A stretch of 64,000 bases of DNA from a phage, in sequence record PZ452583.1. The stretch is one strand, 5' to 3'. Both the position numbers and the translations under genes were made by a program. A model generated the notes under the pieces. That model saw only the letters and a program-made list of their open reading frames with translations. It was not told where the DNA came from and made no database searches. Every line of letters starts with the position of its first letter. Within the stretch, counting starts at the first letter, position 1. Of this stretch, positions 44,810 through 64,000 are shown one piece after another.

Positions 44810-45229
44810 TTATGCTAAAGCTGCTTCGCACCATTTTTTAATTTGGAATTCAGGAACTACCATGAACTGGCCTGCAAAAACAATATTGTAGAGCTTGACA
44901 CCATCTTCTACCCAACGGTCCGAAATAAAACCAGCGACTTGATTCGTTGTCCATGGAGTTCCATCTGTTGCCGCCGCAATTGTGAATTTATGGTCTTTTA
45001 CAACTAAAACTGAAGAACAAAGTTTCCATTTAAATGCGCGTTCTTCTGGCTCAATGAACTGACTTGAGACATAACCAATGTTACCATCAGCGTCACGAAC
45101 TTTAACCTCGTTACGACCAAAAACTGGATCACTTACAGAAAGAACTTCAACCAGCTTTCCTGCAACTTTAGAACGAGAAGCAACGGATACATATACGTAA
45201 TCACCAGTAGAGAGATTTACAATATTCAT
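44810..45229 (-). CDS. Hypothetical protein, paralog family member A (motB-region)
   Basis: 139 aa; shares N- and C-terminal motifs with 45239..45712. Confidence 0.6.
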   Translation of the reverse strand: MNIVNLSTGDYVYVSVASRSKVAGKLVEVLSVSDPVFGRNEVKVRDADGNIGYVSSQFIEPEERAFKWKLCSSVLVVKDHKFTIAAATDGTPWTTNQVAGFISDRWVEDGVKLYNIVFAGQFMVVPEFQIKKWCEAALA

Positions 45230-45238
45230 AATAATTCC

Positions 45239-45712: not shown

Positions 45713-45755
45713 AATTTTTCTCTCTTTGTTGTTAAGATTTATACTCCGCAGGACC

Positions 45756-45785
45756 ATTATACTCTGGTCCCAAGAGTTTGTAAAC
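45756..45785 (-). promoter_or_regulatory. T4-type early promoter (GTTTAC / TATAAT) with flanking 6-bp inverted repeat
   Basis: GTTTAC, 18 nt, TATAAT; GGACCA...TGGTCC brackets the -10. Confidence 0.55.
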
Positions 45786-46222
45786 TAGCTTACACGAACA
45801 TTAATCACTGCGCTACGAGGAACTACAGAGTATTCTCCAGCATGAACTACGTTCAGAAGTTCAACACCATCTTCAATCCACTGATCAGTCACCCATCCAC
45901 CCACAGGATTCGCGAATGGACGACGAATATAAACTGCCTTACACAGCAGATCAGTTGGATCTTCAGGTTTTTCAATTTCTGTCAATAGACTAAAATCTTT
46001 TTCATAAATAATAAGCGATGATACCATTCCATAATAGTTTCTAATTTCAATATACATCATACCGATAAGAATTCCGCTATTAACACTAATAACAGTAAAA
46101 GGATATCCGCCAGTTAAACCAAGAAGTTCACAAAACTTATTATGAGCTGTATTAGACAGTACCGAAAAATTCTTAATTTCATCAAATTTTTTCAATTGAT
46201 AAACAGCATTATTTTTAATCAT
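45785..46222 (-). CDS. Hypothetical protein, paralog family member C
   Basis: 145 aa; C-terminal WVTDQWIEDGVELLNVVHAGEYSVVP shared with members A and B. Confidence 0.6.
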   Translation of the reverse strand: MIKNNAVYQLKKFDEIKNFSVLSNTAHNKFCELLGLTGGYPFTVISVNSGILIGMMYIEIRNYYGMVSSLIIYEKDFSLLTEIEKPEDPTDLLCKAVYIRRPFANPVGGWVTDQWIEDGVELLNVVHAGEYSVVPRSAVINVRVS

Positions 46223-46232
46223 GATTTTCTCT

Positions 46233-46745
46233 TTAATCTAAAGTAATAAAGCCTTTTAATTCGGCATGTGATTTGCGGAACATTACTTGGTGCCCGCCAA
46301 TGATAACTTGATCATCTGGCACTTCATAAATCGCAATGTACATTCCACGATCTTTTAAGTCTTCACGCTCTTCTCGAGTAAACCATCTCATTATATCATA
46401 TTCACTAGCGAAAGCAAAATGATATAATGCAATAAACCACAATGGAATATAATTTTCAATTCGTGAATAATCTTTATTCCATTTAGTTTTAATAGCATCA
46501 TTAGCATTTTCAACTAATAACTTATCATCGTGTGGAATAGGAATACTTTCATGGCTTTCATAATCATTGCTATGATGATGAAATGATGATGAATTAATAC
46601 CGCAAAATTTTAGCCAAGTTCGAGTTTTCATAGAATCAAATCCACGATAAGGAGTTGATTGAACGCATAACTCTTGCCTAATTTTCATTATACCACTATC
46701 ATCATTTAATGCGCTAAACGATGATTCAACACGATAAATTTTCAT
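46233..46745 (-). CDS. Hypothetical protein (170 aa)
   Basis: Track ORF to 46784 spans promoter; ATG MKIYRV has GAGGATAATAAA SD. Confidence 0.55.
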   Translation of the reverse strand: MKIYRVESSFSALNDDSGIMKIRQELCVQSTPYRGFDSMKTRTWLKFCGINSSSFHHHSNDYESHESIPIPHDDKLLVENANDAIKTKWNKDYSRIENYIPLWFIALYHFAFASEYDIMRWFTREEREDLKDRGMYIAIYEVPDDQVIIGGHQVMFRKSHAELKGFITLD

Positions 46746-46772
46746 TTTATTATCCTCAGTAGCTATGGTGTT

Positions 46773-46802
46773 ATAATACCACAACTGACCGAGGAAGTAA
46801 AC
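46773..46802 (-). promoter_or_regulatory. T4-type early promoter (GTTTAC / TATTAT)
   Basis: GTTTAC, 18 nt, TG-n-TATTAT on minus strand. Confidence 0.6.
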
Positions 46803-46808
46803 AACTTT

Positions 46809-47492
46809 TTATCGTTTTGTTGGAAGAGACAGAGGATCGCATTCTTCCTCTGATGGAGCGTCTTCAAGACCCATAGCATAGCGCAAAGCATACTTCATCA
46901 TCAGGATGTCTTTCGCACAGTCATGAATGGAATCATGCGCAACGAATCCATCTAAAGTTCCTTTTGGAAGAGGACACGTAGTCATATCACGAACAAGGAG
47001 AAGTGCTTCAATTCTAGTACGAATGTCGCGTTGATTCCAGAATTTACACGGTTCTAACTTAAATGTATCAAGCTCATTCTCGGAAACGCCGTTAAGACGT
47101 TGAATATCGCGAATGAGATCGACTAAAATTGGAAAATCAAACGACATTCCACGGCACCAGCCTTGAGATTTCCAAGGATCGATATTATGCGCATTGATGT
47201 AATCATTAAATTTTGCAATACCATCGATAGTGCTTACATCTTCATCTGATGGCGCAATATTTTTTCGAGCTTCAGGAGATTGATTCTTCCACCATTCGAT
47301 AGTGCTTTTAGTAAAAAGACGATGTCCTTTTTGGCTTTTTAAATCAAATTTGATTTTAATGCCACGTGAAACTAATTCATCAAATGTTTCAACGACTTCT
47401 GGATTAGGGTCAAAAGCAATTACAGCCAAATCAATAACAGCTGCTTTTTCACCGCTTCCCATTGTTTCAAAATCTATAATAAAATCAAACAT
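46809..47492 (-). CDS. dexA: Exonuclease A (DnaQ-like 3'-5' exonuclease)
   Basis: 227 aa, equals T4 DexA; DEDD-type motifs FIIDFET... Confidence 0.88.
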   Translation of the reverse strand: MFDFIIDFETMGSGEKAAVIDLAVIAFDPNPEVVETFDELVSRGIKIKFDLKSQKGHRLFTKSTIEWWKNQSPEARKNIAPSDEDVSTIDGIAKFNDYINAHNIDPWKSQGWCRGMSFDFPILVDLIRDIQRLNGVSENELDTFKLEPCKFWNQRDIRTRIEALLLVRDMTTCPLPKGTLDGFVAHDSIHDCAKDILMMKYALRYAMGLEDAPSEEECDPLSLPTKR

Positions 47493-47749
47493 TAAATTTT
47501 CCTCGCTAAATCACGAATTTGACCTACAGTATAGTCTTGAATATAAACTTTATTGATAGGCTCATCAATAAATTTTGCCATAGATTCAATGTCTTTTTGT
47601 ATTTCTTCAAGACTGTATACTATCTTTAAAGCTTTTTCGCGAATAGTAATATTTTCAGGACCCTGATTTTCTTCAATGACAGCTTTAACATTTGTCATAA
47701 GAGATTTAAACTGGTACCAACTCAACTCAATCATTAATAATCGCCTCAT
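47492..47749 (-). CDS. Hypothetical protein, tandem paralog 1
   Basis: 85 aa; similar to 47727..47987 (MRRL/MRKL, LEEIQKDI/LEEIERDL). Confidence 0.55.
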   Translation of the reverse strand: MRRLLMIELSWYQFKSLMTNVKAVIEENQGPENITIREKALKIVYSLEEIQKDIESMAKFIDEPINKVYIQDYTVGQIRDLARKI

Positions 47750-47987
47750 AAAGATAGCTAATTTCGCCTAAAACGTAATCATTGATTGTAACAGTTTTCA
47801 CTTCACCACAAAAGAATTCTAACGCAATTAAATCTCGTTCAATTTCTTCTAATTGAAGCATCAACTTACTAGATTCAATTTTTACAGTTTCACGATTTTT
47901 ACCATGAGCAATTTCATAAATTTCGCTAACTTTATCCTGAAGAAGATAAAACTGATCTTTAGTTATTTCCACGAATAGCTTCCTCAA
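47727..47987 (-). CDS. Hypothetical protein, tandem paralog 2
   Basis: 86 aa. Confidence 0.55.
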   Translation of the reverse strand: MRKLFVEITKDQFYLLQDKVSEIYEIAHGKNRETVKIESSKLMLQLEEIERDLIALEFFCGEVKTVTINDYVLGEISYLYEAIIND

Positions 47988-48219
47988 ATTTAATTAGTAA
48001 TTTACAGACACTTTCATCTAGTGTAATTACCGTATCTGTATTACTGTGATATGATTGTTTTTCAATTCGTTTAATTGCTAATATAGTATCACTTATAAGA
48101 TAAAGCTTATGAAGGAGCTCAGCTCCTGTTATCATAACATTAAGATTATCTTGCTTATTAGTATGCTTCCTTATACCATCTATTAGACGATTTAAATATT
48201 TTGAATTGATGTTAATCAT
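47959..48219 (-). CDS. Hypothetical protein (86 aa)
   Basis: ORF track. Confidence 0.5.
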   Translation of the reverse strand: MININSKYLNRLIDGIRKHTNKQDNLNVMITGAELLHKLYLISDTILAIKRIEKQSYHSNTDTVITLDESVCKLLIKFEEAIRGNN

Positions 48220-48225
48220 ATATCC

Positions 48226-49545
48226 TCACACATAAAATACGTCATAACGACCACGGGTAACACCAACATAAAGAAGTTGTTGAGCTAGTTCAGCATCTGC
48301 ATAATGAATACAAGGCGTATAAATGAAAGCACGGTCTACAGACATACCCTGAGCTTTATGGAATGTTGATGCAGGAAGTGCTTTCACTTTACTAAACTGT
48401 GATTTAGCATCCCAAAAATCACTCCACGGAGCTTTTCCGCCTTTGTTCCAATTTTTATAAGTTTCTGCCGTTTTACCTAAAAATAGGTTAAACTTATATA
48501 GCTCTTCATCAGATGAAATTATTTTAATCTTTTCACGATAATATTCATCATCGCCGTAAGTTTCTACTGTTAAATCCCAATGACGAATTAAGTATTCTCC
48601 AGGAACACCACGAGCTTTAACAAACGTCGATGTATACTCTGCTTCTATAATACGAACTAATTGTCCATTATTAAAAATAATTTCTGACACAGGCTTTCCG
48701 TCAATTTTATATGTTTTAATTAATGGTTCCTGCATTACAATAATTTCACCGACAATAAAATCTTTATCAGTTTCAAAAATCTTTTTACGAATAATGCTAT
48801 TTAACTTGTCAACAGATTTATTCGTAAATGCCATTACGCGATTTTCAAACAAATCATCTAAAGATTTGACGATTGAAAAATAATTTACCATAAAATCGCG
48901 TAAAGCGGTATCACCAGTAAATCCACGTACTCCATGCCCGTCAACAACTTTATCATAAATCCACTTACCGTTACGAACGTCAGTAGCTACATCAATAATA
49001 GGAGCATTACTGCGTTTAACTTCAGTGAGTTCACACTGATAAAAATCTTTATGTGTAAAGAATGGACTGATATAAGCAGTGTTTTCTCCTGGGTCAACAG
49101 GTCTAATTTGCTTATTATCACCTATTCCAATTATAGTACACCATGGCGGGATAGTTGAAAGCAGAATTTTAAATAGCTTTCTATCATACATTGACACTTC
49201 ATCGCAGATTAATACTCTGCATTTAGCTAAATCTGGTACTTCCTTCTGCTCAAAGAGGACATTTTCTTCATATGTTACCGGGTTAATTTTGAGAATACTG
49301 TGAATAGTACTCGCTTCTTTCCCTGATAGTTTTGAAAGAATCTTTTTAGCTGCATGTGTAGGAGCTGCCAAAATGATACCAGTTTCGCCCGTAGATATTA
49401 AAGCTTCAATGATGAACTTAGTAAGAGTAGTCTTACCAGTACCAGCAGGTCCATTAATAGTTACATGATGTTTCTTTTCTTTAATAGCCCTCATAACAAT
49501 GTTAAAGGCATTTTTCTGGCCTTCAGTCAAATCATCAAATGTCAT
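48226..49545 (-). CDS. dda: Dda DNA helicase (SF1B)
   Basis: 439 aa, equals T4 Dda; Walker A GPAGTGKTT. Confidence 0.93.
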   Translation of the reverse strand: MTFDDLTEGQKNAFNIVMRAIKEKKHHVTINGPAGTGKTTLTKFIIEALISTGETGIILAAPTHAAKKILSKLSGKEASTIHSILKINPVTYEENVLFEQKEVPDLAKCRVLICDEVSMYDRKLFKILLSTIPPWCTIIGIGDNKQIRPVDPGENTAYISPFFTHKDFYQCELTEVKRSNAPIIDVATDVRNGKWIYDKVVDGHGVRGFTGDTALRDFMVNYFSIVKSLDDLFENRVMAFTNKSVDKLNSIIRKKIFETDKDFIVGEIIVMQEPLIKTYKIDGKPVSEIIFNNGQLVRIIEAEYTSTFVKARGVPGEYLIRHWDLTVETYGDDEYYREKIKIISSDEELYKFNLFLGKTAETYKNWNKGGKAPWSDFWDAKSQFSKVKALPASTFHKAQGMSVDRAFIYTPCIHYADAELAQQLLYVGVTRGRYDVFYV

Positions 49546-49853
49546 CGTAAATTCCCTGCAATTGGTATACTAACAATACGCCCAGTATCTAAAATTCGCC
49601 GATATAATCTTTGTGTGTCTACATCAGGCTTAACATGTTTAACTTCTATTTTATTAAACCAAAACTTGCGTGGAGTCTCAACTAATCTTGGAATTCCCTT
49701 ACCTAAAGCTAATCGATACTGCTCTTTAAGAGTAGTAAATACTTTATCAGCAATATTCCATTCAAAAAATACAGCAGGACGATGTTCATCAAGCGGAACT
49801 GGCGCCGTAAATCCGTCTTTGTCTCGGTAAACTATCGCATATACATAAACCAT
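49542..49853 (-). CDS. Hypothetical protein (dda.1)
   Basis: ORF track 103 aa; overlaps dda start. Confidence 0.6.
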   Translation of the reverse strand: MVYVYAIVYRDKDGFTAPVPLDEHRPAVFFEWNIADKVFTTLKEQYRLALGKGIPRLVETPRKFWFNKIEVKHVKPDVDTQRLYRRILDTGRIVSIPIAGNLR

Positions 49854-49854
49854 A

Positions 49855-50601
49855 TTATCCTCGGATAAGTTTAAAAATTGAACAATTCAGCGGATATCCT
49901 CTTTTCAGTTTAAGTTTATCAATAAAAGACAAGTTTTGATACCGCTCTACACCTTGAATAATTTTATCACACATATCATATTGCATTTCTGCTTCTGACA
50001 ACTTTTTCACAGTTTTCCAATCCGAGCCTTTAAGAAGAACGTTCAGTTTAACAACTTCAGCGCCTTCTGCTATGCGAGAACCATCAATACGAGCTTTAAG
50101 TGCTATAATTCTTAGCTTAATGTCAGAGGTCTGTTTTGATTTAGAAAGCTGAGAAATGTGTTCAATTCGGTTTTCACGTTTTTTCTGTATAGCTTTAATT
50201 TGATTATAAGTCTTTTTGATTTTAGCCCATTTCTTTTCATCTAAATTTAGTTTATGAACTTTTTTCGCAGATGAACGACCAATTCGCAAAGCAAACAAAT
50301 CACGTTTTTCAATTAACTCCTCTAAAGTATAATCAGAACGAAATGTATTATACTTTTTCTTTACTGCAATAACGTTCCCTTTAATGTATCCAATGTTATT
50401 ATCAAAACGTTCTAATGATAATTTCTCTCCTTCAATACGATTATCAAAAGGTTCTCCCGAGTAAGCGCAAACTTTTTGGTCTAAAATGTTCTTAATGTAA
50501 TTGAAGTCTAAGTTAAAATCTTTAGAACGTCTTTTTGCAGATGCCTGAGTATGCTCTAAACGACGTTTAATTTTACGAATTTGGTTATTAGACAGCTTCA
50601 T
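49855..50601 (-). CDS. srd: Srd-like protein (sigma-related host takeover factor) by position
   Basis: 248 aa basic protein between dda.1 and modA as in T4; sequence identity not verified. Confidence 0.6.
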   Translation of the reverse strand: MKLSNNQIRKIKRRLEHTQASAKRRSKDFNLDFNYIKNILDQKVCAYSGEPFDNRIEGEKLSLERFDNNIGYIKGNVIAVKKKYNTFRSDYTLEELIEKRDLFALRIGRSSAKKVHKLNLDEKKWAKIKKTYNQIKAIQKKRENRIEHISQLSKSKQTSDIKLRIIALKARIDGSRIAEGAEVVKLNVLLKGSDWKTVKKLSEAEMQYDMCDKIIQGVERYQNLSFIDKLKLKRGYPLNCSIFKLIRG

Positions 50602-50637
50602 ATTTTTCTCACATCTTACGGACGGTTAACTACTTAT

Positions 50638-50667
50638 ACTATAACATTTTTACTTTAACTTGTAAAC
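50638..50667 (-). promoter_or_regulatory. T4-type early promoter (GTTTAC / TATAGT)
   Basis: GTTTAC, 18 nt, TATAGT upstream of srd. Confidence 0.55.
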
Positions 50668-50724
50668 AACTTTATGTAAAAATGCTTTAAAAATTTCATG
50701 GTATAATGAATCTAAGTCCTTCCA

Positions 50725-51327
50725 TTATAGATTAAATCCTTCAAAATCAAGAGTATAGATAGTGTATGTTGAATACTTTTTGTACTCATATCTATCTGCA
50801 ATTCTAAATACACTTCCAGCTGGTATCATTACTTCTTGTTCATCTGAAACTAATTCCATATTACGATAACGATGGCTATCCGGAAACTTAAAGTTTGGAT
50901 TGTATTCTTTACAGCGTAGAGCTTTTATAGCATACTCCTGGAAATTGAATACCATAGGAGCTTTGAATTCAAAAATAACTTGTGTGTTATACTCTAAACC
51001 GGAAGCAAAATGTAGAGCTATATTTTTATCATATGAAGCTGATACGACTTTATCAAATGTAATAATATCAATTCCTTGATTTAACACCTGCTTAGTCTCA
51101 GCTGGAACACCTCTCCAAAGAGGTTTATCGTTTGGAACCAAACGAGATTTGATTATTTCATTTAACCAAGTATGGTCATCTGGTTTATTAGTAATACAAT
51201 GAATTAAAAGTTCAATTTCAGATAAATTAAACCCTTCAGAAAGCAATTCTTCACGAATAGAAGCACGCACCGATGCATCCATTGATTTTATTTTAAAATC
51301 TTTTAGTTGCATTATTGAGTATTTCAT
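50725..51327 (-). CDS. modA: ModA ADP-ribosyltransferase
   Basis: 200 aa, equals T4 ModA; ART-like R-S-E features; adjacent paralog modB. Confidence 0.85.
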   Translation of the reverse strand: MKYSIMQLKDFKIKSMDASVRASIREELLSEGFNLSEIELLIHCITNKPDDHTWLNEIIKSRLVPNDKPLWRGVPAETKQVLNQGIDIITFDKVVSASYDKNIALHFASGLEYNTQVIFEFKAPMVFNFQEYAIKALRCKEYNPNFKFPDSHRYRNMELVSDEQEVMIPAGSVFRIADRYEYKKYSTYTIYTLDFEGFNL

Positions 51328-51947
51328 TCAACTACCTCAATATCATAAACTTTAAATGTTCCAAATGAATCGTGTAATTTTTCTTTTGAAATAGAAGTTA
51401 TTCTATACTTTCCAATTGGAATCATCCATTCTTGTTCATGTACAATCATCATTAAGTTATCAGTACGCTCTGAATCTAATCCATCAGTGTCTTCATACGT
51501 GTACTTAAACTCAGTATTAGGAGAAGAAAGTATAATATCGCTGATATGGTCAGAGTAATTAAAAGCTTTATCAGTTTTTAAACGAAGTATTGTTTCAGTG
51601 AAATATTCAGCATAAGAAAAAGAACACGCTGTATGCAAACTAGTAGTAAATGAATCTACCCTGTTCGTTGAAAACACTTCTCCAACTTGTAAATCTTTAA
51701 TAAGTTCTTTTGTCGATTTTGATATACCACGATATAACTGATAAGGCGATTTAGTTAAATGCTTTTTAATGATTTTATTCAACTGCCTATGAATAGCTTC
51801 ATTCTTTTTGGCTTCCATACATTGCCAAAGAACAGACTGCTCAAAGTCAGTAAATTTTTCACAGACTTTTTTATACATATCATATTGAAAATCAACGCTT
51901 TCAGCTTTTATAGATAACTGTTCAACATCTGCAGGATTAATAATCAT
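51324..51947 (-). CDS. modB: ModB ADP-ribosyltransferase
   Basis: 207 aa, equals T4 ModB; paralog of ModA. Confidence 0.85.
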   Translation of the reverse strand: MIINPADVEQLSIKAESVDFQYDMYKKVCEKFTDFEQSVLWQCMEAKKNEAIHRQLNKIIKKHLTKSPYQLYRGISKSTKELIKDLQVGEVFSTNRVDSFTTSLHTACSFSYAEYFTETILRLKTDKAFNYSDHISDIILSSPNTEFKYTYEDTDGLDSERTDNLMMIVHEQEWMIPIGKYRITSISKEKLHDSFGTFKVYDIEVVE

Positions 51948-51973
51948 GATAGCCTCCGTATACTTCAGAAGCT

Positions 51974-52003
51974 ATCATATCATCGTTAGAAAGGAAAGTA
52001 AAC
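51974..52003 (-). promoter_or_regulatory. T4-type early promoter (GTTTAC / TATGAT)
   Basis: GTTTAC, 18 nt, TATGAT upstream of modB. Confidence 0.55.
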
Positions 52004-52014
52004 AACTTTTTAAA

Positions 52015-52197
52015 TTATTTTGCCCAGGGAGCCCAAGGCGGAGGGTCAAGATGGTATGAAGCCAGTTCTTCTAGAAGAGCATCTGGGGCTTCAATTCCAT
52101 AATTCTGTAATACTATACGGTATTCTTTCTTATAATCACTAGAATCATTCTGGATATTCGTAGAATGATTATCTTCTAACATCTCAAATAAATCCAT
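52015..52197 (-). CDS. Hypothetical protein
   Basis: ORF track 60 aa. Confidence 0.45.
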   Translation of the reverse strand: MDLFEMLEDNHSTNIQNDSSDYKKEYRIVLQNYGIEAPDALLEELASYHLDPPPWAPWAK

Positions 52198-52205
52198 ATT
52201 AATTC

Positions 52206-52676
52206 CTAGCGATAAAAACCAAAGTGACGATTAGCTTCAATGATCTTTCTTTCTTCTTCTGACATTCTCCATCGTAGTCCAACATCAAAATGAGCCCAGA
52301 CCATCTTAACAAATGCATTTATATCTTTAATATCTTCAATAATGAATGTTTTACTTTTAGAAGGTTGACTCGCTAATTTAACTTTATCGTCTTCAAACAT
52401 GTCAAAAAGACCATATTCATGAGCTCTTTTATAGCCTTTAATAGTTAAAGCTTCAGAAGAAGAAAATGGTGAATCTGTATTCTGCAAAATATCTTCAGTA
52501 TGCTTTATAATTAGAATAACATTTTCTGGATATTTTCTTTCTTTTATATCTTTAATTAAAATATCTGGATTTTCTGCTAAAGGAATAATTAATGAGCACT
52601 TTTTATCAAGTGTATTTACTGATTTACCTTCTTTAGACATAAATTCTATTGAATATAATTTTGCTACTTCAATCAT
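52206..52676 (-). CDS. Hypothetical protein
   Basis: ORF track 156 aa. Confidence 0.6.
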
Positions 52677-52833
52677 GTGATTTCCTTTTGCCTACTAATG
52701 GACCGTCAGGAATTTTATTTTCCTGGATATACTTCTCATTTTCTTCCATCATTTTACTGCCAATTTTAAGAAGCAAATCCAATGCTTCATTTGCTTTATC
52801 CTTAGCCTCTTCTAACGTCATGTTCTTGTTCAT
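52669..52833 (-). CDS. Small hypothetical protein (54 aa)
   Basis: ATGA overlap with upstream stop; not in track. Confidence 0.4.
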
Positions 52834-53033
52834 GATTTATCACCATAGATGTCTCTCATCAATTTAAGTGCTGAGCGTTCTAATTTCTTTTCTTTCTCAG
52901 CACTAATCATTGATTTCATCCATTCTTCCGATTCGTTCTGCATTTCTTTATTTGCCTGTTCAACCCAACCATCATCAATATACATTGAGTTTGGTCTATT
53001 GAACCATTCAAGCATTTTCTTCAGAACTTTCAT
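52830..53033 (-). CDS. Hypothetical protein
   Basis: ORF track 67 aa. Confidence 0.5.
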
Positions 53034-53505
53034 TTGTTTTACCTAAAACGATAGTATGGACACCGTCAAATTCATGAATTTTTAGCAAATTTGGATTTAA
53101 ATTATTCCATAAAGAGGTAATAAAATATGATAGCGCACTTTCGTCCGTAATTATAAATTTATTTCCCTTATCAATTTTCCAGTCATATATTGAATCATAT
53201 GAATAGAAGGATAACGGTTTATTATTATAGTATGCTTCAGCAACATCAATATAGTTAGATTTAGTAAATGCTTGAATTGCCATAAATGGAGAATTTTGTA
53301 CAGTTTCAATAATTCCGATCTTTTTAAGTTTTATTTCAACATCTTCTGGAACTGGCATTGAAATAAAATCTTCTACTAGATACATGTCATTGTCATATCT
53401 TTTATCAATCATTACTGCTACTGTAATTGGAACATCCTTGACAAACGCCATACTAATACTATTGATAGACATTTCAAATAAAATCGCTTCCATAATTTTC
53501 CTCAA
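53008..53505 (-). CDS. Hypothetical protein (Mrh-like by size and position?)
   Basis: ORF track 165 aa; start uncertain. Confidence 0.55.
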
Positions 53506-53843
53506 TCACAAGATGTAGATGAACAACCAGAATCACAAGAACTTCCACATGAATCGCCCGTCAATACATGAACAGGAACATTAGTATCATATGAATCAGA
53601 ACTAGACTGTGTATTCTGTGCATTAGATGATGTAGTAGGTACTGACCAGCGCCAAGGATTTTTATAATATTCTTGGGCTTCTTCATAAGTCATAGTAACT
53701 GCTTCTACTGTTCCATCTCCCATATAAACATACTCAACTACAGTTAAAGGAAGGTAGTCATTTGAAATAGGAACTACACCTTCTCCAGGAGTCGTAGAGA
53801 AAAAATCTGTAAAGAAACTTTTAAACCAATTAAAAATAAACAT
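53502..53843 (-). CDS. Hypothetical protein with Cys/Ser-rich C-terminus
   Basis: 113 aa; hydrophobic N-terminus; C-terminal [18 protein letters not shown]. Confidence 0.55.
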
Positions 53844-54049
53844 TACAAAAAGCCTCTTTTGAATTCAACTTGTTTATCGCCATAATCATATCGAATCTCT
53901 GCATTAAATTCAACAGAACCATCTGCGTACATCATAAATGAATGCACGACAACTTCTGTAGACCATGGTTGTAGTTCATATTTCTTCATTACATGTCGTG
54001 AAATGATAATATCTAAATCTTCATTCGGTTTAATCCAACGATTTAACAT
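53843..54049 (-). CDS. Hypothetical protein
   Basis: ORF track 68 aa. Confidence 0.5.
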   Translation of the reverse strand: MLNRWIKPNEDLDIIISRHVMKKYELQPWSTEVVVHSFMMYADGSVEFNAEIRYDYGDKQVEFKRGFL

Positions 54050-54075
54050 AGCGCTCTCCTCTATAAGATAATTCT

Positions 54076-54105
54076 ATTATACCATACTCATTTTGGAAAG
54101 TAAAC
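54076..54105 (-). promoter_or_regulatory. T4-type early promoter (GTTTAC / TATAAT)
   Basis: GTTTAC, 18 nt, TATAAT on minus strand. Confidence 0.6.
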
Positions 54106-54111
54106 CATTTA

Positions 54112-54139
54112 AATGAAAAAAGGACTCCCGAAGGAGTCC
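54112..54139 (-). terminator. Rho-independent terminator after soc, identical to the one at 293..323
   Basis: GGACUCC-UUCG-GGAGUCC plus U-run. Confidence 0.7.
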
Positions 54140-54145
54140 TTGAAT

Positions 54146-54391
54146 TTATTCACCAGTTACTTTCCACAAATCTTCGTTTGCAGTAATCCATTCAGTACGT
54201 TGATTTTCTTCATATACTGTAGAATATGCTGCTTTTTCTGAAGGGAATATCTGGTAATGAGCACCAGAAATTTTGTGAACGTCAGAATAAAGAGGGAAAG
54301 CTACAGAAATTTCCTTTCCTTCAATTTTCTTATTTCCATCTAATTTCTGCTCAAATGTTTTGATATTAACATAACCGCGAGTACTAGCCAT
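54146..54391 (-). CDS. soc: Soc small outer capsid protein
   Basis: 81 aa; MASTRGYVNIKTFEQKLDGNKKIEGKEISVAFPLYSDVHKISGAHYQIFPSEK... matches T4 Soc. Confidence 0.93.
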   Translation of the reverse strand: MASTRGYVNIKTFEQKLDGNKKIEGKEISVAFPLYSDVHKISGAHYQIFPSEKAAYSTVYEENQRTEWITANEDLWKVTGE

Positions 54392-54421
54392 GTAATTCTC
54401 CTTTTATTTAAATTACATGAT

Positions 54422-54429
54422 TATTTATA
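54422..54429 (-). promoter_or_regulatory. T4-type late promoter TATAAATA for soc
   Basis: Exact TATAAATA ~35 nt upstream of soc ATG. Confidence 0.65.
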
Positions 54430-54474
54430 ATAAATTCTCGCGGCTTTTAAGTCGTCGTTTATTTAAACGAGCTA

Positions 54475-54990
54475 TTAATAGCCTCGATCTTGACGAGCGA
54501 AGTTTTCGGCATTTTTCAGATAATAAAGTTTAAAGATTTCTTCAGCTGACATTCCAAGAGCAATGAATTTATTCATGAAAAAGTGAAATTGGTCAATTAG
54601 TTCAAATTTAATTTCAAGTTGATCTTCAGGAGATAAATCTTGAATTTTCTTGGATTGCATTTCAGAATAACGTTTCTTCCAAGGTTTCCATACAGCAGAA
54701 GCTTCTTTTTCACCATTACTCATACCACCAAGAGAAGTATATAGCTCGCGAGTTTCATCTGCGATATAATCGTCTTGGTTTCGCAACCAAGCAAGAACTT
54801 CTCCTGCAGTTTCAAGTGAATCAGGATGACGATTTGTTTCTGGTTTATCATTAGCCAAACGAATCTGTAAATGCCGCTGCATGTCAAGCATAACCTGCAA
54901 TGGGTCAATACTGTGCATAATATACTCAGCATATGCACGATTTGCTTTATCAACACCTTCGATCAAATGAGCACATTCATTAAAGTGAGC
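54475..54990 (-). CDS. 56: gp56 dCTPase/dUTPase
   Basis: 171 aa from ATG MAHFNECAHLIEG...; matches recalled T4 gp56. Confidence 0.9.
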   Translation of the reverse strand, partial: AHFNECAHLIEGVDKANRAYAEYIMHSIDPLQVMLDMQRHLQIRLANDKPETNRHPDSLETAGEVLAWLRNQDDYIADETRELYTSLGGMSNGEKEASAVWKPWKKRYSEMQSKKIQDLSPEDQLEIKFELIDQFHFFMNKFIALGMSAEEIFKLYYLKNAENFARQDRGY

Positions 54991-55053
54991 CATTATTTTT
55001 CCTTTCAATTCATTAATAAGTTAAATAATTATATCATTTGAGTATGTAAGCAA

Positions 55054-56393
<1,340 letters not shown>

Positions 56394-56418
56394 TATATCA
56401 TCCTCAGCAATTTATTTT

Positions 56419-56448
56419 ATAATACCATAACAAGCTGAGAAAGTAAAC
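56419..56448 (-). promoter_or_regulatory. T4-type early promoter (GTTTAC / TATTAT) for the dam-upstream ORF
   Basis: GTTTAC, 18 nt, TATTAT on minus strand. Confidence 0.6.
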
Positions 56449-56483
56449 AAATTTATGATAAATATTAATTTAAAGGAGGACAT

Positions 56484-56684
56484 ATGGTACAAAAATTAAT
56501 GGCACTTGTTAATGCCATAAAAGGTAATAAGAAACGTATAGCTTTTACTATTTCTGCTATGGTAGGAATTTTACTCTGGAACTTTATTTTATCACCTGTT
56601 GCAATTGCACATGGTATTAATATTCCAGTAGTTACTCTTGATACATTCGTAGATTTAGCATTTGCTTTAGTTGGGTTAATTTAA
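56484..56684 (+). CDS. Small hydrophobic membrane protein (66 aa) on the opposite strand
   Basis: Strong SD AAAGGAGGA 6 nt before ATG; hydrophobic; plus-strand island between minus-strand genes. Confidence 0.55.
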   Translation: MVQKLMALVNAIKGNKKRIAFTISAMVGILLWNFILSPVAIAHGINIPVVTLDTFVDLAFALVGLI

Positions 56685-57709
56685 ATCTTGGCATATTTAG
56701 ATAGCCGCATTTTAGCCATCAACCCCTGTGCAATATTATTTTTCATATATTCCATAATTTGTTCAGGGGTTGCACCTTCCTTTCTAATCATATCATTAAC
56801 ATCTTTTGATTTCCAGGGAGATTTATCCCAAAACATAACCCTTTCTCCTGCATCAACTAATTTAGTCATTCGCTTAATAGTGTCAGGATGACGAGGTTCA
56901 TTATCTAAAACCCACACACGTCTATCTTTAAATGGAACAACTTCTAGGTCTAATTGACCACCCGTAATAGCTATACCATTTTCAATAAAAAGTGAATCTA
57001 TAGGTCCTTCTAGAACATATACATCACCATCTTTAACTCGTTCGACTCCATAGATTTTTGTTGCTTCAGGATAAGCTTTGATGGTGATATATTTTTGGGG
57101 AGCATCTTTCTTTAATGCACGTCCTTGAAAAGACTCAGCTTTTCCATTAGCATTATAAATTGGAATAACAAGACGAGGCTCAGGTATTTCCTTTTTATAT
57201 GTTCCCGGTGCTATGCTATTAACTAATTTAGGCCATTCGGTTGTAAACCAAAGATATTTCCATTTATCCTTTGGAATACAACGAGCTTTTACGTATTTTA
57301 TAATTGGATGGTCTTCCGCCAGTTTATCTAATCTAACACATGACGGAAGAGATTTAATTATTTTCTTTTCAGGTTGTTTAGGAAGTTCTTTAGGTTTTTC
57401 TACTGGACGACTTTTACCTTTTTCTTTTCTTATTTCAAAGATATACTCACGATATAAATCAGGTTCAAACTCCTTTAAATATATTCCGATTGGCGCATGA
57501 TAGTTACAGTTATAACAATGAATATTTCCTTCATTATTATCACCATAATACCATCCACGAGCTTTATTCTGGTCGGTTTTTGAATCTCCGCAAACAGGGC
57601 ATCTAAACCGTAATTTAAAAGTTGAACTATTATTTACTTGTGTGAATTTAGGTAAATGGGCTAATGCACGATACGCAAACTCATTATCAATCCAAGGTAT
57701 TGATGACAT
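56681..57709 (-). CDS. 61: gp61 DNA primase
   Basis: 342 aa, equals T4 gp61; N-terminal zinc ribbon CPVCGD...CYNC; TOPRIM region. Confidence 0.93.
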   Translation of the reverse strand: MSSIPWIDNEFAYRALAHLPKFTQVNNSSTFKLRFRCPVCGDSKTDQNKARGWYYGDNNEGNIHCYNCNYHAPIGIYLKEFEPDLYREYIFEIRKEKGKSRPVEKPKELPKQPEKKIIKSLPSCVRLDKLAEDHPIIKYVKARCIPKDKWKYLWFTTEWPKLVNSIAPGTYKKEIPEPRLVIPIYNANGKAESFQGRALKKDAPQKYITIKAYPEATKIYGVERVKDGDVYVLEGPIDSLFIENGIAITGGQLDLEVVPFKDRRVWVLDNEPRHPDTIKRMTKLVDAGERVMFWDKSPWKSKDVNDMIRKEGATPEQIMEYMKNNIAQGLMAKMRLSKYAKI

Positions 57710-57711
57710 TT

Positions 57712-57876
57712 TTACTCTTCTTTTTCTTTAGATTCCTCTTTTTTCTTTTTAGGAATCTGTTCAGGACCTTTATTTACTACAGCACCTGATGTTGTTCCAG
57801 TAGAGATATTTTCAGGATTACCACCTGAATCTCCAGCAACCATATCTTCTTTAATAAATTCTTTATATGTTTTCAT
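57712..57876 (-). CDS. Small hypothetical protein (61.1-like, 54 aa)
   Basis: ATG overlaps upstream stop; K/E-rich C-terminus; not in track. Confidence 0.45.
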   Translation of the reverse strand: MKTYKEFIKEDMVAGDSGGNPENISTGTTSGAVVNKGPEQIPKKKKEESKEKEE

Positions 57877-57877
57877 A

Positions 57878-58234
57878 TTAACCTCTATTCATAAAAGCAT
57901 TAAAAATTTGGTCATCAATAGATGGCGCAGTAATATTTTCTGCATTATTTAGCAAATCATTAATTTCATCGGATAGCATAACACATGTACCTTTATTTCC
58001 TGTAATTGTTACTGCGCAATTACGAACGTTTTCTTTATCAAATTTTAGGTTAATATTTTCGTAGTGAAAATCCTTTAATGCCGAATATATCTTTAAAATG
58101 AAATTGTCTTTTACTACAATAAACCCAACCTCACTATTAAAACGCGGTTCATGGAAACTGTAATAAACCTTTTCATCTATAAAATCGTATGAAATTTTTT
58201 CCATTTTTAAATATGAAAATTCAGAACTACACAT
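57878..58234 (-). CDS. Hypothetical protein (61.2-like)
   Basis: ORF track 118 aa. Confidence 0.55.
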   Translation of the reverse strand: MCSSEFSYLKMEKISYDFIDEKVYYSFHEPRFNSEVGFIVVKDNFILKIYSALKDFHYENINLKFDKENVRNCAVTITGNKGTCVMLSDEINDLLNNAENITAPSIDDQIFNAFMNRG

Positions 58235-58246
58235 ACTAACCTCTAA

Positions 58247-58540
58247 TTACTCACCTACCACTTCAGCGATGATATTTTTGTTATTAAAGTTTTTATCGCA
58301 ATACAGAACATAATTATACTGCATTACACCACCAGACTTAAGCTGTTTTTGCACTTCAGCTTTCATTTCAGGACGATCGCGCTCAACAATATTCATAATA
58401 TCCGCTTCAATTTGAGTTTCAACCTCAGTCTGATCCGCAGTCATAGACCATTCACACAAGTCTTTATCATATCCTGCCATAGCAGGCTGAGCAGCACAAG
58501 AAGACAAAGTAAAAATTGTAGCAAAGATAATTTTTTTCAT
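58247..58540 (-). CDS. sp: Spackle periplasmic protein (superinfection exclusion / lysozyme inhibitor)
   Basis: 97 aa with signal peptide, equals T4 Sp; GAGGAG SD. Confidence 0.8.
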   Translation of the reverse strand: MKKIIFATIFTLSSCAAQPAMAGYDKDLCEWSMTADQTEVETQIEADIMNIVERDRPEMKAEVQKQLKSGGVMQYNYVLYCDKNFNNKNIIAEVVGE

Positions 58541-58568
58541 GATAATCTCCTCAGTAGTTTATGTTTAT

Positions 58569-58598
58569 ATAGTATATCAATTTCCAACAAAAGTAAAC
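58569..58598 (-). promoter_or_regulatory. T4-type early promoter (GTTTAC / TACTAT)
   Basis: GTTTAC, 18 nt, TACTAT upstream of sp. Confidence 0.55.
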
Positions 58599-58600
58599 AG

Positions 58601-58858
58601 TTATTTTAAAACTTCTGCGTAATCACATGTTACAAACTGTTTCTCTAGCTTAACGATTTTACGAAAATACCTTTTATACTGACGAATCTGCCTCTTCGTA
58701 GGACGTACAGCAAACTTAATAAATTCCACTCGACCAAATGGAGGACTTTCTTCTGCTGGAATATCTAACACCAATTCCCACGTATCTGCAATAAGTGCTT
58801 TGAATTGAGTATTTTTCCTGACGTTATACGGAGTAGGTTTAAATAAAACAATATGCAT
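58601..58858 (-). CDS. Hypothetical protein (61.4-like)
   Basis: Track ORF to 58900; ATG MHIVLF has GAGGATAAT SD. Confidence 0.55.
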   Translation of the reverse strand: MHIVLFKPTPYNVRKNTQFKALIADTWELVLDIPAEESPPFGRVEFIKFAVRPTKRQIRQYKRYFRKIVKLEKQFVTCDYAEVLK

Positions 58859-58859
58859 A

Positions 58860-59042
58860 TTATCCTCGGCAATCCACTTCGCACACTTTCTTGTCATCAA
58901 TGAAAGCTTTAACTAATGCTTTATTAACTTCAGCATATTGAGTAGTAGCCCATTGAACGTCATCTTTCATCATTGTGATTTCTTTAGTAAACATGCTTTC
59001 ATTCTTAAACCACCCCATAAAAACTACCTTTACCAATTCCAT
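58860..59042 (-). CDS. dmd: Dmd antitoxin-like protein (inhibitor of host RnlA/LsoA RNase toxins)
   Basis: 60 aa, position immediately upstream of gene 41 as T4 61.5; sequence recalled as Dmd. Confidence 0.75.
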   Translation of the reverse strand: MELVKVVFMGWFKNESMFTKEITMMKDDVQWATTQYAEVNKALVKAFIDDKKVCEVDCRG

Positions 59043-59063
59043 AACAATCTCCTCATTTAACCA

Positions 59064-59093
59064 ACAAGACTACTATACCATAGTCTTGTCAGC
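59064..59093 (-). promoter_or_regulatory. T4-type early promoter (GTTTAC / TATAGT) with 8-bp inverted repeat around -10
   Basis: GTTTAC, 18 nt, TATAGT; CAAGACTA...TAGTCTTG palindrome. Confidence 0.55.
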
Positions 59094-59100
59094 TTGTAAA

Positions 59101-60528
59101 CTAAAATTTTAATTCATTTGCCAAAGCATCTAACTGAGCTCGAGCTGATTCGTTTCTTTGATAGCGATTCTGTTCAGCCTGAATCTGTTGTGAACCTGCT
59201 ACTTCACTCACTTCGGTTGGAGTAGAATCTTGTTCAATTTCTACCCATTTTTGATTTCCTTTTTGAACACCCATCAAAAACTTATTCCATTTATTCTTAT
59301 CGCCATATCGTGATTTGATTTGCTTAATGAGTTGTTGTTCAGCAGCTGCTAGCTCCTCGGTTTCAATGACCGCAAGCATAAAATCAGCTGTTGCTGGAAG
59401 ACCGGCAGATTCTGCAATATCGCTCATGTTAACATCAGAAGAATCCCAAGCTTGTTTACCAACCTGTGCTGCAGTCCAAAGAACAGTTTCGGTTTCAACA
59501 GCCAGAGCACGCAATTCCTCTGCAATAGCTTTAACAGTTGTGTAACTATTTTCTGAATAAACTCGGATGCGACAAGATTTACAAATACCTAGATAGTCGA
59601 CAATAATGATTGTTGGAACAAAATTCTTCTTGAGCTTCAATTCGTTTAAAAGTGATCGAAATGTATTAGCGTCTGCTCCACCAGTAGGATACTGTTTAAC
59701 GATTAAACGACCGAGAGTAGATTTCTCACGCCATTTTTCCATTTTTCCTTTATACTCAGCGTAAGAAATATGCCCATCATCAATATCATCAAGAGAAACA
59801 TCAAGCATATTAGCATCAATACGCTTAGCACAGACTTCTTCTGCCATTTCCATGGAAATGTAAAGAACATTATGTCCGAGCTGCAAATAATCTGCTGCCA
59901 ATGAACACAATCCTAATGACTTACCAACGTTAACTCCAGCCATTAAAACGTTCAGTGTTCCAGTCTCAGCTCCGCCTTTAGTAATTTTGTTTAGAATTCT
60001 GAGTTTAAATGGAACTTTACGAGCTTTATTCATATAAGATAGCCAGCGTGCTTCGTAGTCATCCATCCAATCATGACCAACGTAGCTATCAAATGAAATT
60101 GATAATGCTTGGCGCATGATGTCAGGAATAGCACCAACATCCGGCATTTTCTTATTTCGTTTTTCCGGAGGAAGCTCAGCATTAGTTTGAATTTCGATTA
60201 TTTTAGACGTAGCATTAAACATCGCCCTTTGCTGAACATATTTTTCTGTTTCTTTTATTAACCAGCTGTGGTCTTCCGGAGAATCAGCCAGTTTTGAAAT
60301 AAGTGTTTTTACACCAGAATATTCTGTTTCAGTAAATGAACTATTTTCTAATGCAACATTTAACGCATTAATAGATGGAACGCTATGGTACTCATTAACA
60401 TGAGATTTAATTAATTTGAATGTATTTTTAGCTGGACCACTTTCAAAATATTCTGAATCCATATATGGCCAAACTTTTGAAAAATAAGCTTGATCAAATA
60501 TGAGATGAGAAAGAATAATTTCTACCAC
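59101..60528 (-). CDS. 41: gp41 replicative DNA helicase
   Basis: 475 aa, equals T4 gp41; Walker A GVNVGKS. Confidence 0.95.
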   Translation of the reverse strand: MVEIILSHLIFDQAYFSKVWPYMDSEYFESGPAKNTFKLIKSHVNEYHSVPSINALNVALENSSFTETEYSGVKTLISKLADSPEDHSWLIKETEKYVQQRAMFNATSKIIEIQTNAELPPEKRNKKMPDVGAIPDIMRQALSISFDSYVGHDWMDDYEARWLSYMNKARKVPFKLRILNKITKGGAETGTLNVLMAGVNVGKSLGLCSLAADYLQLGHNVLYISMEMAEEVCAKRIDANMLDVSLDDIDDGHISYAEYKGKMEKWREKSTLGRLIVKQYPTGGADANTFRSLLNELKLKKNFVPTIIIVDYLGICKSCRIRVYSENSYTTVKAIAEELRALAVETETVLWTAAQVGKQAWDSSDVNMSDIAESAGLPATADFMLAVIETEELAAAEQQLIKQIKSRYGDKNKWNKFLMGVQKGNQKWVEIEQDSTPTEVSEVAGSQQIQAEQNRYQRNESARAQLDALANELKF

Positions 60529-60537
60529 ACTTACTCC

Positions 60538-60882
60538 TTAAAAGAATTTAAACTTTTTCTTTGACCTTTTATTAAATGCATCTTGTAGTTGCATTGTAAT
60601 ACATTTTTCTACATGAGGAGCTAACTCAGCTTTTCTTTCTTGGTCAAGAACAGCAAAGTCCATTACAACCTTTCCATCAACCCAATCCAGTTTAGTTACA
60701 TACACTATATGTGTAGAACCATCTTCTAGTTTAATGACAATCTCCTGGATAACATTTTCCATGGCAGATTTAATTATCTTAAGAGACTCATTAAAAAGAC
60801 GTTCTTTTCTTTCTTCTTCCCCCTCCGAAGAGGGGGATTCATCGATAATTTCTAGATCTAAGTCTAAATCATCTTTATTCAT
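60538..60882 (-). CDS. 40: gp40 head-vertex assembly chaperone
   Basis: Position between uvsX and 41; start chosen at ATG with GGAAG SD; track start 60900. Confidence 0.7.
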   Translation of the reverse strand: MNKDDLDLDLEIIDESPSSEGEEERKERLFNESLKIIKSAMENVIQEIVIKLEDGSTHIVYVTKLDWVDGKVVMDFAVLDQERKAELAPHVEKCITMQLQDAFNKRSKKKFKFF

Positions 60883-62056
60883 TAAATTCTTCCATATCAC
60901 TTAACTGCTCGAGGTCAGTTTCTAAATCAGCTGCTGATTTACTTTTACTTTCTGGAGATTTAAATTTTTCAACCTTTGAGTTAATCAATTCATCAACTTC
61001 AGCTTCAACAATTTCATTACTATCAATAGCACCTAACTGATAAGCACGTTTAATAGCATCTCGGAATGGTTGATGCTTAAATAAAGGACCCCAGAATGTA
61101 GTGCAGTTAGTATCTTTTGCACGCCAAGATTTTTCTTCGCGAATCATCTCGCCAGTTTCTTCGTCAAGAAATTCACGAGCATACCAGCCATTTTTAGGTT
61201 TTACAACAAATCCTAATTCTAGAGCCATATCTAACAATCCAGAATAAGGATCGATACCACCGTCAAATTTAACATCAATAAAGAATTTACTTTTTTCTTT
61301 AACGGTACGAGATTTTTCTACATTTAGAACAAATTGATACCCCTGAAGATCAGAACCATCTTTAATCTGGCGCTTACCGATAATGAATACAGTATCAGCC
61401 GAATACATTACGCCTGTACCACCTGTCATCACGGTTTTACTAAACATTTCAATTGTTTCAATTGTATGGTTAACCGCAACACATGGAATGTTTTTAATAC
61501 TAAAATAAGGAGTAACAATACGGAATAATGACTTCAGTGATTTAGCACGAGTCATATCTGCCACAGATTTTTCATTCAAGGCATCTTCCGTTTCTTTCTT
61601 AGAAGCCATATTACCGATTGAGTCGATGAATACAATAACCTTTTCACCACGCTCAATAGCTTCAAGCTGATTCACCATATCAATTTTCAGCTGTTCAACT
61701 GACTGAATCGGCGTATGAATTACTCGTTCCGGGTCAACTCCCATGGATCGCAAATAAGCTGGAGTAATACCAAATTCACTATCATAGAATAGACAAACCG
61801 CGTCAGGATATTTGTTCAAATATGCCGCAACCATAGTCAAAGACATATTTGATTTAAAGTGTTTAGAAGGACCTGCAAAAATAGTTAAACCAGACTGCAT
61901 GCCGCCATCAATCGCACCAGAAATAGCAATATTAAGCATTGGAATTTTTGTACGAATTACATCCTTTTCATTAAAGAATTTAGATGTAGTCAGTTCAGCA
62001 GTCATTTTAGAAGTGGAAGCTTTAATCAAACGGGATTTTAAATCTGCAATAGACAT
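60875..62056 (-). CDS. uvsX: UvsX recombinase (RecA-like)
   Basis: 393 aa; RecA fold motifs; C-terminus ...DLETDLEQLSDMEEFNE as T4 UvsX. Confidence 0.93.
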   Translation of the reverse strand: MSIADLKSRLIKASTSKMTAELTTSKFFNEKDVIRTKIPMLNIAISGAIDGGMQSGLTIFAGPSKHFKSNMSLTMVAAYLNKYPDAVCLFYDSEFGITPAYLRSMGVDPERVIHTPIQSVEQLKIDMVNQLEAIERGEKVIVFIDSIGNMASKKETEDALNEKSVADMTRAKSLKSLFRIVTPYFSIKNIPCVAVNHTIETIEMFSKTVMTGGTGVMYSADTVFIIGKRQIKDGSDLQGYQFVLNVEKSRTVKEKSKFFIDVKFDGGIDPYSGLLDMALELGFVVKPKNGWYAREFLDEETGEMIREEKSWRAKDTNCTTFWGPLFKHQPFRDAIKRAYQLGAIDSNEIVEAEVDELINSKVEKFKSPESKSKSAADLETDLEQLSDMEEFNE

Positions 62057-62104
62057 TCATTTTTTCCATAGGCATCATTATATTTTCCTCACTGGTTAAA
62101 GATA

Positions 62105-62135
62105 GAGTAATTATAACACAATAAATTTAGGCATT
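62105..62135 (-). promoter_or_regulatory. Putative middle promoter for uvsX (MotA-box-like plus TATAAT)
   Basis: AATGCCTAA about 11 nt upstream of TATAAT on minus strand; weak match. Confidence 0.35.
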
Positions 62136-62982
62136 AATCAACTGCTATTGGATGAATAGCATTAAACTTATGAAATGCTTCTGATTTTTCTTTACGTGAA
62201 ACGCACATGCGAAGAACCTTTAATGGTTCGTCTTCTTCACCCAACGATTTTCGTTTTTCAATATTAGAAGTTTTCCAACGAGCTTGCTCTGGAAACTCTC
62301 TATTAATCTGCTCAAGCGCTCTATTATGTTTAGAATTACTACGAATTGAACTGCACCCGCCAGGAGCTTGTGCTTTTCCAGATACAACTAGATATTTGAA
62401 CAAGGCCAAATGCGGATAACCTTGATTAATTAAATTGAGAAATGCATACATATCTTCGCATAAATCAATTTTTCCATACCCAATTTGTTCTGTCGTAAGT
62501 TTTCCGAGGTCATACCATGTATTCGTGAATCCATATGAATTTTCACGATAATTACCCCAAGATGAAGTAATTTTAAAAATAGGTAGACGAGCATGGCCAT
62601 GATAATACCCGCAATCCATGGCATCCTCAACATATTGAATCAATTCATAGAACTGTTCACGAGTCAATTGATTGACTTTATCTACGCAACGACGATCATC
62701 TCTTTTTCGCATTGAACTCATACGAATAGTAGTATCATCGTCAATCATCCAGATTCGTTGACCTGCATACATATCGGTAATTGCTTTACGAGTACCGGCA
62801 ATTCCGTTTACATCATCAGGAATAGTTATAATTTTAGCTCTAGACCCATAAGCGTCATGATAAGCTTTTTCTTCATGTTCACGCACTACAATATGCGGTT
62901 CATAATCAGTCGGAAACATATCAAGGGCAGAAACTGCCCTGACACGCTGATAACTTGGAATTACGAATTGAATCATTTCCAC
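62134..62982 (-). CDS. Putative glycosyltransferase at the beta-gt locus (not T4 beta-gt; candidate beta-alpha-glucosyl-HMC glucosyltransferase)
   Basis: 282 aa; GT-A-like FVIPSYQR and acidic WMIDDD motifs; sits between 42 and uvsX but unlike recalled 351-aa T4 beta-gt. Confidence 0.6.
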   Translation of the reverse strand: MEMIQFVIPSYQRVRAVSALDMFPTDYEPHIVVREHEEKAYHDAYGSRAKIITIPDDVNGIAGTRKAITDMYAGQRIWMIDDDTTIRMSSMRKRDDRRCVDKVNQLTREQFYELIQYVEDAMDCGYYHGHARLPIFKITSSWGNYRENSYGFTNTWYDLGKLTTEQIGYGKIDLCEDMYAFLNLINQGYPHLALFKYLVVSGKAQAPGGCSSIRSNSKHNRALEQINREFPEQARWKTSNIEKRKSLGEEDEPLKVLRMCVSRKEKSEAFHKFNAIHPIAVD

Positions 62983-63713
62983 TCACCTTTATAGTCTTTT
63001 TTCACAATATGAGTTTCGCCAGTATTCCACCAATGATCAACCAAGTAAAAATGACGAGAATATACATGAAGACTTCCGACATTCCATATAATAGAACCTG
63101 CTTTATACTGACGAGTTGAATCGCCGGCATTCAAATCAGATACTAATTTATCTAATACGTATTTTTGCCATGCATAATCATTACGGAATCCGAAGACCAC
63201 GTCATTTGAGCGCATGCTTACTACTGCATTGACTTTCTTATCACGAATCAGGTACTGTACTGTATTAGTACACATGAAATCTGACATACCATCTTTATTG
63301 TAGTCAAATTGCATGGATGGACGAGTATAAATCATGATACCACGTCGAGAATCAGGATTTTGACCAAGTTCAGCTAAACACATATCATACTGGGCATAGT
63401 TATCTTCTGACCAAATAGCCCAACCATAATTCGAGTTAATTTCGCCTTTAGAAGATGCTACCTGCTGCCAAATCTTTGGTGTTTCACCTGGAATATCTTT
63501 AACAAACAAGCTCTTAGATTTATACCATTCAAGTTCACGTTGAATGTATTCATCATTAAGAGCGCCAAAAATAAACGGTTCATCTGCTACAAATGATGCG
63601 CCAATAATTTCAATAGTTTTAACACCAGTTTTATCAACTACGAAATCTTTTTCTTTTAATGCAAGCCCCAAATGAAGACGGATTTCTTCAACTGTCATAG
63701 AGTCACTAATCAT
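62973..63713 (-). CDS. 42: gp42 dCMP hydroxymethylase
   Basis: 246 aa, equals T4 gp42; thymidylate-synthase-like fold. Confidence 0.93.
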   Translation of the reverse strand: MISDSMTVEEIRLHLGLALKEKDFVVDKTGVKTIEIIGASFVADEPFIFGALNDEYIQRELEWYKSKSLFVKDIPGETPKIWQQVASSKGEINSNYGWAIWSEDNYAQYDMCLAELGQNPDSRRGIMIYTRPSMQFDYNKDGMSDFMCTNTVQYLIRDKKVNAVVSMRSNDVVFGFRNDYAWQKYVLDKLVSDLNAGDSTRQYKAGSIIWNVGSLHVYSRHFYLVDHWWNTGETHIVKKDYKGEWK

Positions 63714-63720
63714 TTAAACC

Positions 63721-63870
63721 TCAATTGATACATTCATATTTAACTTGTAACAGTAATAAACCCCAACCTAAAATAATAGTTGGAATCATAAGAGGAACCG
63801 TTACACTATAGTATATACTTATTATAATCATCAAGATTAAAAGCAACACTGTTATAATTTTGCTTTTCAT
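63721..63870 (-). CDS. Small membrane protein (imm.1-like, 49 aa)
   Basis: AGAAGGA SD; hydrophobic; not in track. Confidence 0.5.
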   Translation of the reverse strand: MKSKIITVLLLILMIIISIYYSVTVPLMIPTIILGWGLLLLQVKYECIN

Positions 63871-64000
63871 TCCTTCTCTCTGATGATAATTACCTGATTT
63901 GGTTGTGCAGACTTTTTAGTTTCACCCGCAATTGACCAAATAAATGTAATAAACCAACCAATAATTGACCAGTTAAACAGTAAAGATGTGAAAAAGATTC
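63867..64000 (-). CDS. Membrane protein, 3' part only (runs off right edge; imm-like by position)
   Basis: Open frame from window edge ending in TGA overlapping downstream ATG; hydrophobic. Confidence 0.4.
   Translation of the reverse strand, partial: IFFTSLLFNWSIIGWFITFIWSIAGETKKSAQPNQVIIIREKE

Follow-up and report, generated by a model that had tools for sequence, protein, structure and literature searches.

The gene lying between gene 42 and uvsX in the 64,000-nucleotide stretch of phage DNA analysed here (sequence record PZ452583.1, hereafter the window) very probably encodes a beta-glucosyl-HMC-alpha-glucosyltransferase of the T2/T6 type (ba-gt), that is, a small TAGT-family enzyme with a GT-A fold that makes gentiobiosyl-hmC. 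Such a gene has already been described and is an ordinary occupant of this locus, and there is nothing new in finding it. Its value for the window is one of annotation, as the phage can be called a Tequatrovirus of the T2/T6 type, with ba-gt and a predicted alpha-gt. The biological weight of the assignment lies in the second glucose, which alters which host defences act on the phage DNA.

Identity of the gene and its genomic locus

The gene, its two neighbours and the segment that distinguishes the locus from that of T4 are the following (positions in the window):

62134..62976, minus strand: ba-gt (ggt, TAGT) coding sequence, 280 aa plus stop, based on the ORF, the RB51 and T2 annotations, Pfam and PHROG
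62973..63713, minus strand: gene 42, dCMP hydroxymethylase, based on the ORF and on the annotated gene 42 in RB51, T2 and T6
60875..62056, minus strand: uvsX recombinase, flanking the cassette downstream, based on the ORF and the annotations in RB51, T2 and T6
62045..62990, no strand assigned: replacement cassette of 946 bp without a DNA counterpart in T4, based on blastn against T4

At the DNA level, RB51, RB68 and Ac3 have exactly the same ba-gt (100% identity), and 475 phage records match it at an identity of at least 90%. Nearly all of these records belong to Tequatrovirus, from Escherichia, Shigella, Yersinia and Salmonella, and many of them are annotated as beta-glucosyl-HMC-alpha-glucosyltransferase. 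Given this number of records, together with protein homologues reaching E = 8e-187, the ORF is far beyond what chance would produce. An earlier reading of the window, made from the sequence only, had raised the beta-alpha-glucosyltransferase of T2 and T6 as one possibility, next to "another hypermodification enzyme", and had proposed a homology search against the T2/T6 proteins. This search came out in favour of the former, as 4 of 280 positions distinguish the window protein from the T2 enzyme (98.6% identity; R11H, R13G, H40Y and P251S, with the window residue given first) and 5 of 280 distinguish it from the T6 enzyme (98.2% identity), one of the five being an amber codon, apparently stock-specific, of one T6 record. 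Compared with both T2 and T6, G13R and H40 (Y in T2, N in T6) are private to the window allele, which has R11 and P251 in common with T6, and D55 and R106 in common with T2.

Family assignments point in the same direction. The protein matches the Pfam family PF20691 (TAGT) with 42.2 bits against a cut-off of 27.5, over profile positions 2-205 of 205, and PHROG 842 with E = 8.4e-89. Among the Pfam models there was no GT2 match, NCBIfam has no model for the protein, and no solved relative came up when the sequence was searched against the PDB, where the sole matches had E > 1. Considering the identity to the T2/T6 enzymes, the TAGT membership and the GT-A fold (see below), there is no need to invoke another hypermodification enzyme. 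Winkler and Rueger reportedly cloned the genes of T2 and T6 and determined their sequences in 1993. For RB51, Thomas et al. 2018 listed the protein YP_002853998.1 as a ba-gt homologue with 99% identity, in addition to an a-gt homologue (PMC6024577).

The window has ba-gt between uvsX and gene 42, the latter directly upstream and overlapping it, and genes 41 and 40 come further downstream; T2, T6 and RB51 also have ba-gt in this position. The borders of the cassette were defined by blastn of window positions 60801-64000 against T4 positions 20000-28000. Homology to T4 DNA extends up to 62044 (uvsX, 88%) and is found again from 62991 (gene 42, 95%), and in place of the window's 946 bp, T4 has a slot of 1941 bp with segA and b-gt. 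Using tblastn, neither the T4 segA, located in T4 between uvsX and b-gt, nor the T4 b-gt was found in the window. At this site, ba-gt is the usual gene in T4-like coliphages and T4 is the exception, the common state being an alpha-GT or a beta-GT paired with a TAGT, while the combination of alpha-GT and beta-GT seen in T4 is rare (PMC13216743). On the uvsX side, only 77 nt separate the stop codon of ba-gt from the start of uvsX, and within 62045-62133 there are a TATAAT-like sequence and, for uvsX, a ribosome-binding-like GAGG.

The alpha-glucosyltransferase that would supply the substrate of the enzyme gave no match when the RB51 a-gt was run against the window by tblastn. An a-gt is present in RB51, whose ba-gt gene is identical, and in relatives this locus lies around 13 kb beyond the end of the window. 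Within the window positions 44000-64000, no phage record exceeds about 96-97% identity over most of the length, and the ungapped comparison of the window with RB51 breaks down outside ba-gt. The window is thus a mosaic Tequatrovirus relative of RB51, and not RB51 itself.

Start codon, fold and conserved motifs

The translation start and the conserved motifs of the protein involve four further short features:

62977..62982, minus strand: GTG GAA, the two extra codons of the sequence-only reading, judged by their spacing to AAGGTG and by the RB51 and T2 annotations
62984..62989, minus strand: Shine-Dalgarno-like AAGGTG within the end of gene 42, read from the sequence, with a putative role for the ATG at 62976
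62944..62967, minus strand: FVIPSYQR, residues 4-11, N-terminal motif, from the 48-sequence alignment
62734..62742, minus strand: D79-D80-D81, predicted DXD-type metal and UDP-sugar motif, from the alignment and the model

The sequence-only reading had described a gene of 282 aa (62134..62982, minus strand, counted from GTG) between 42 and uvsX, containing FVIPSYQR and WMIDDD. The ORF, its locus and both motifs stand, but the length has to be revised, as judged from the spacing of the translation signals and from the annotated relatives the real start is most likely the ATG at 62976, giving 280 aa. This ATG lies 7 nt downstream of AAGGTG, a sequence conserved upstream of ba-gt in T2 and T6, whereas the GTG at 62982 is only 1 nt from it. 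The RB51 and T2 annotations have the same 843-nt coding sequence of 280 aa, beginning at ATG. The GTG start was therefore dropped, and the codons GTG GAA are probably untranslated. Moreover, the ATG overlaps the stop codon of gene 42 in the sequence ATGA (62973-62976), which suggests a translational coupling of ba-gt with gene 42.

Promoter and terminator scans returned values near the shuffled expectation and were given no weight. Positions 62924-62940 on the minus strand (ba-gt codons 13-18) can form a hairpin with 7 GC-rich base pairs (AGGGCAGTTTCTGCCCT), and a T-rich stretch comes after it. This hairpin, flagged as terminator-like by a simple scan, lies inside the 5' end of the ba-gt coding sequence and is conserved in T2 and T6, with GGGGCAG...CTGCCC.

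For the structural analysis, 50 family members were collected by profile search and 48 sequences were aligned. An AlphaFold model from the single sequence had a pLDDT of 39.6 and was set aside; the model used was the one based on the 48-sequence alignment, with a pLDDT of 91.9 and a pTM of 0.90. It consists of a single Rossmann-like alpha/beta/alpha domain, like the solved GT-A enzymes, and its structural matches are to GT-A glycosyltransferases only, the nearest relatives being mostly inverting GT2-type enzymes. The GT-A type that the sequence-only reading had assigned is thereby borne out by the model, as well as by the membership in the Pfam TAGT family.

Within the 48 aligned sequences, D79-D80-D81, R11 and R63 are invariant (48/48), and I6, P7, R32, Y39, T62 and R212 nearly so. 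GT-A enzymes carry a DXD motif for the metal and the nucleotide sugar after a central beta strand, and in the model the DDD directly follows the central beta strand E74-78. According to alignment and model, D79-D80-D81 is the predicted DXD-type metal and UDP-sugar motif of the enzyme, and from the model we infer a nucleotide-sugar binding role for FVIPSYQR. The TAGT of T6 has been modelled as a GT-A as well, sister to GT2 (PMC13216743).

Proposed reaction and level of second glucosylation

The following reaction path can be proposed for the window phage. The product of gene 42 would make hydroxymethyl-dCMP, to be incorporated into DNA as hmC, and after replication the phage alpha-glucosyltransferase would add an alpha-linked glucose to the hmC. 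By analogy with the near-identical enzymes, ba-gt would then take UDP-glucose made by the host, presumably bound through a divalent metal and the DDD motif, and attach its glucose at the 6-OH of the one already present, yielding gentiobiosyl-hmC. In this step the anomer would be inverted, from UDP-alpha-glucose to a beta-1,6 bond. Such an inversion would fit the bond found in gentiobiose, and most of the nearest structural matches are themselves inverting enzymes of the GT2 type. The second sugar would hide alpha-glucosyl-hmC from defences reading it, such as the Brig1 DNA glycosylase.

The present analysis establishes the orthology, the family, the fold, the motifs and the synteny of the gene; the reaction and the consequences for defence are those published for near-identical enzymes. 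Several published results illustrate these steps. T6 without ba-gt contains only alpha-glucosyl-hmC and is more Brig1-sensitive (PMC11078745), and in T6 without g-gt, around 75% alpha-glucosyl-5hmC was reported (bioRxiv 10.64898/2026.02.25.707755). Gentiobiosyl-hmC itself is resistant to Brig1, yet it is still a target of GmrSD-type systems (PMC11078745; PMC13216743; PMC13390438). In Tequatrovirus phages with an alpha-GT and a TAGT at the site syntenic to the T4 beta-GT, gentiobiosyl-hmC was identified by HPLC/MS (PMC13390438), and by analogy it can be expected in the DNA of the window phage.

Since the locus is the same as that of T4 b-gt, one could think of a beta-glucosyltransferase of the T4 type (GT-B) that has stayed in place while its sequence diverged strongly. 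This explanation is refuted and its probability is negligible, given that the T4 DNA homology ends exactly at the cassette borders, that the model has the single domain of a GT-A and not the two domains of a GT-B, and that BLASTP against the 351-aa T4 beta-gt revealed no similarity (best E = 2.2 over 8 residues), which agrees with the sequence-only reading, where the protein had been described as unlike that enzyme. Another explanation would be a TAGT using a different donor or acceptor, for instance bare hmC or beta-glucosyl-hmC, and leading to a modification other than gentiobiosyl-hmC. Specificity is not readable from the sequence, and a TAGT homologue may accompany an alpha-GT or a beta-GT or stand by itself, which means that the family as a whole has no fixed acceptor (PMC13216743). 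However, a different specificity is very improbable, as the window protein is 98-99% identical to enzymes of known product, those of T2 and T6, the gene context is shared with T2/T6, and a-gt is present in the genome of RB51, where the gene is identical.

The T2-like case, in which the window gene is a ba-gt orthologue that works poorly and leaves the DNA essentially alpha-monoglucosylated with a few percent gentiobiosyl, is also unlikely, albeit to a lesser degree. The difference in gentiobiosyl level between T2 and T6 has been known since the 1960s. The two enzymes are five residues apart (the amber of one T6 record uncounted), and gentiobiosyl-hmC amounts to ~5% in T2 DNA and ~72% in T6 DNA (PMC6024577). 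Related Tequatrovirus phages likewise form two classes of gentiobiosyl content (PMC13390438), and the residues D55 and R106 link the window allele to T2. Against a poor activity stand R11 and P251, both as in T6, the former being invariant in the family and replaced by H in T2 alone, as well as the chemical analyses of ten Tequatrovirus phages, seven of which have around two thirds gentiobiosyl-hmC (PMC13390438). As the extent of the modification varies between phages with nearly identical enzymes, the amount in the window phage is not predictable with certainty. Overall, an enzyme of the T2/T6 type making gentiobiosyl-hmC is the assignment that we retain.

The comparison of alleles also drew attention to codon 11 of ggt. 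In T2 (MH751506, 4096-4098, corresponding to window positions 62944-62946) this codon is CAT, encoding His, while Arg11 is kept by the window, T6, RB32 and all 48 aligned TAGT-family sequences. Of 462 matching records, only SV76 and seven records of T2 have the exact 83-nt T2 allele, and RB32 has the T2 83-nt allele but for a single base of codon 11. From these sequence comparisons, R11H might be a candidate cause of the low gentiobiosyl-hmC content of T2. The broader proposition, that Arg11 determines to what extent a second glucose is added to the DNA, is tentative and we consider it rather doubtful. If true, the window phage would resemble T6, with a gentiobiosyl-hmC share of about two thirds, and a single residue would account for the difference between ~5% in T2 and ~72% in T6.

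The neighbouring codon 10 of ggt (window positions 62947-62949) is an amber TAG instead of CAG in the T6 record MH550421, where the annotated coding sequence is consequently only 261 aa long. CAG is present in the other T6 genome (AP018814 / NC_054907), and the amber allele is exactly matched by no other of 473 records. It is probably a mutation specific to that stock or a sequencing error.

Comparison with known systems

The closest known systems are the ba-gt genes of T2 and T6 (also named ggt or g-gt), which, like the window gene, encode 280 aa, lie between 42 and uvsX and overlap gene 42 by ATGA. The window gene differs from them by the private G13R and H40, and it has kept the R11 that is lost in T2. 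At the level of the Pfam family PF20691, the window protein has IPSYxR, R63 and DDD in common with 47 other members, and its C-terminus extends ~70 residues past the model. In comparison to the TET-associated TAGT enzymes, the hmC in this case would come from a dCMP hydroxymethylase and not from a TET/JBP dioxygenase.

The T4 b-gt, a GT-B enzyme, occupies the same genomic slot, and the use of UDP-glucose and a beta linkage on phage DNA would be common to both, although the two proteins are unrelated in sequence and fold. While the acceptor of T4 b-gt is bare hmC, that of ba-gt would be alpha-glucosyl-hmC, and whereas in T4 the segA homing endonuclease adjoins b-gt, the window is without segA. 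Among the inverting GT2-type enzymes with a GT-A fold, TarP and TarS from S. aureus and the chondroitin polymerase K4CP have only 8-15% identity to the window protein and differ from it in the acceptor, which for the window enzyme would be a sugar on duplex DNA.
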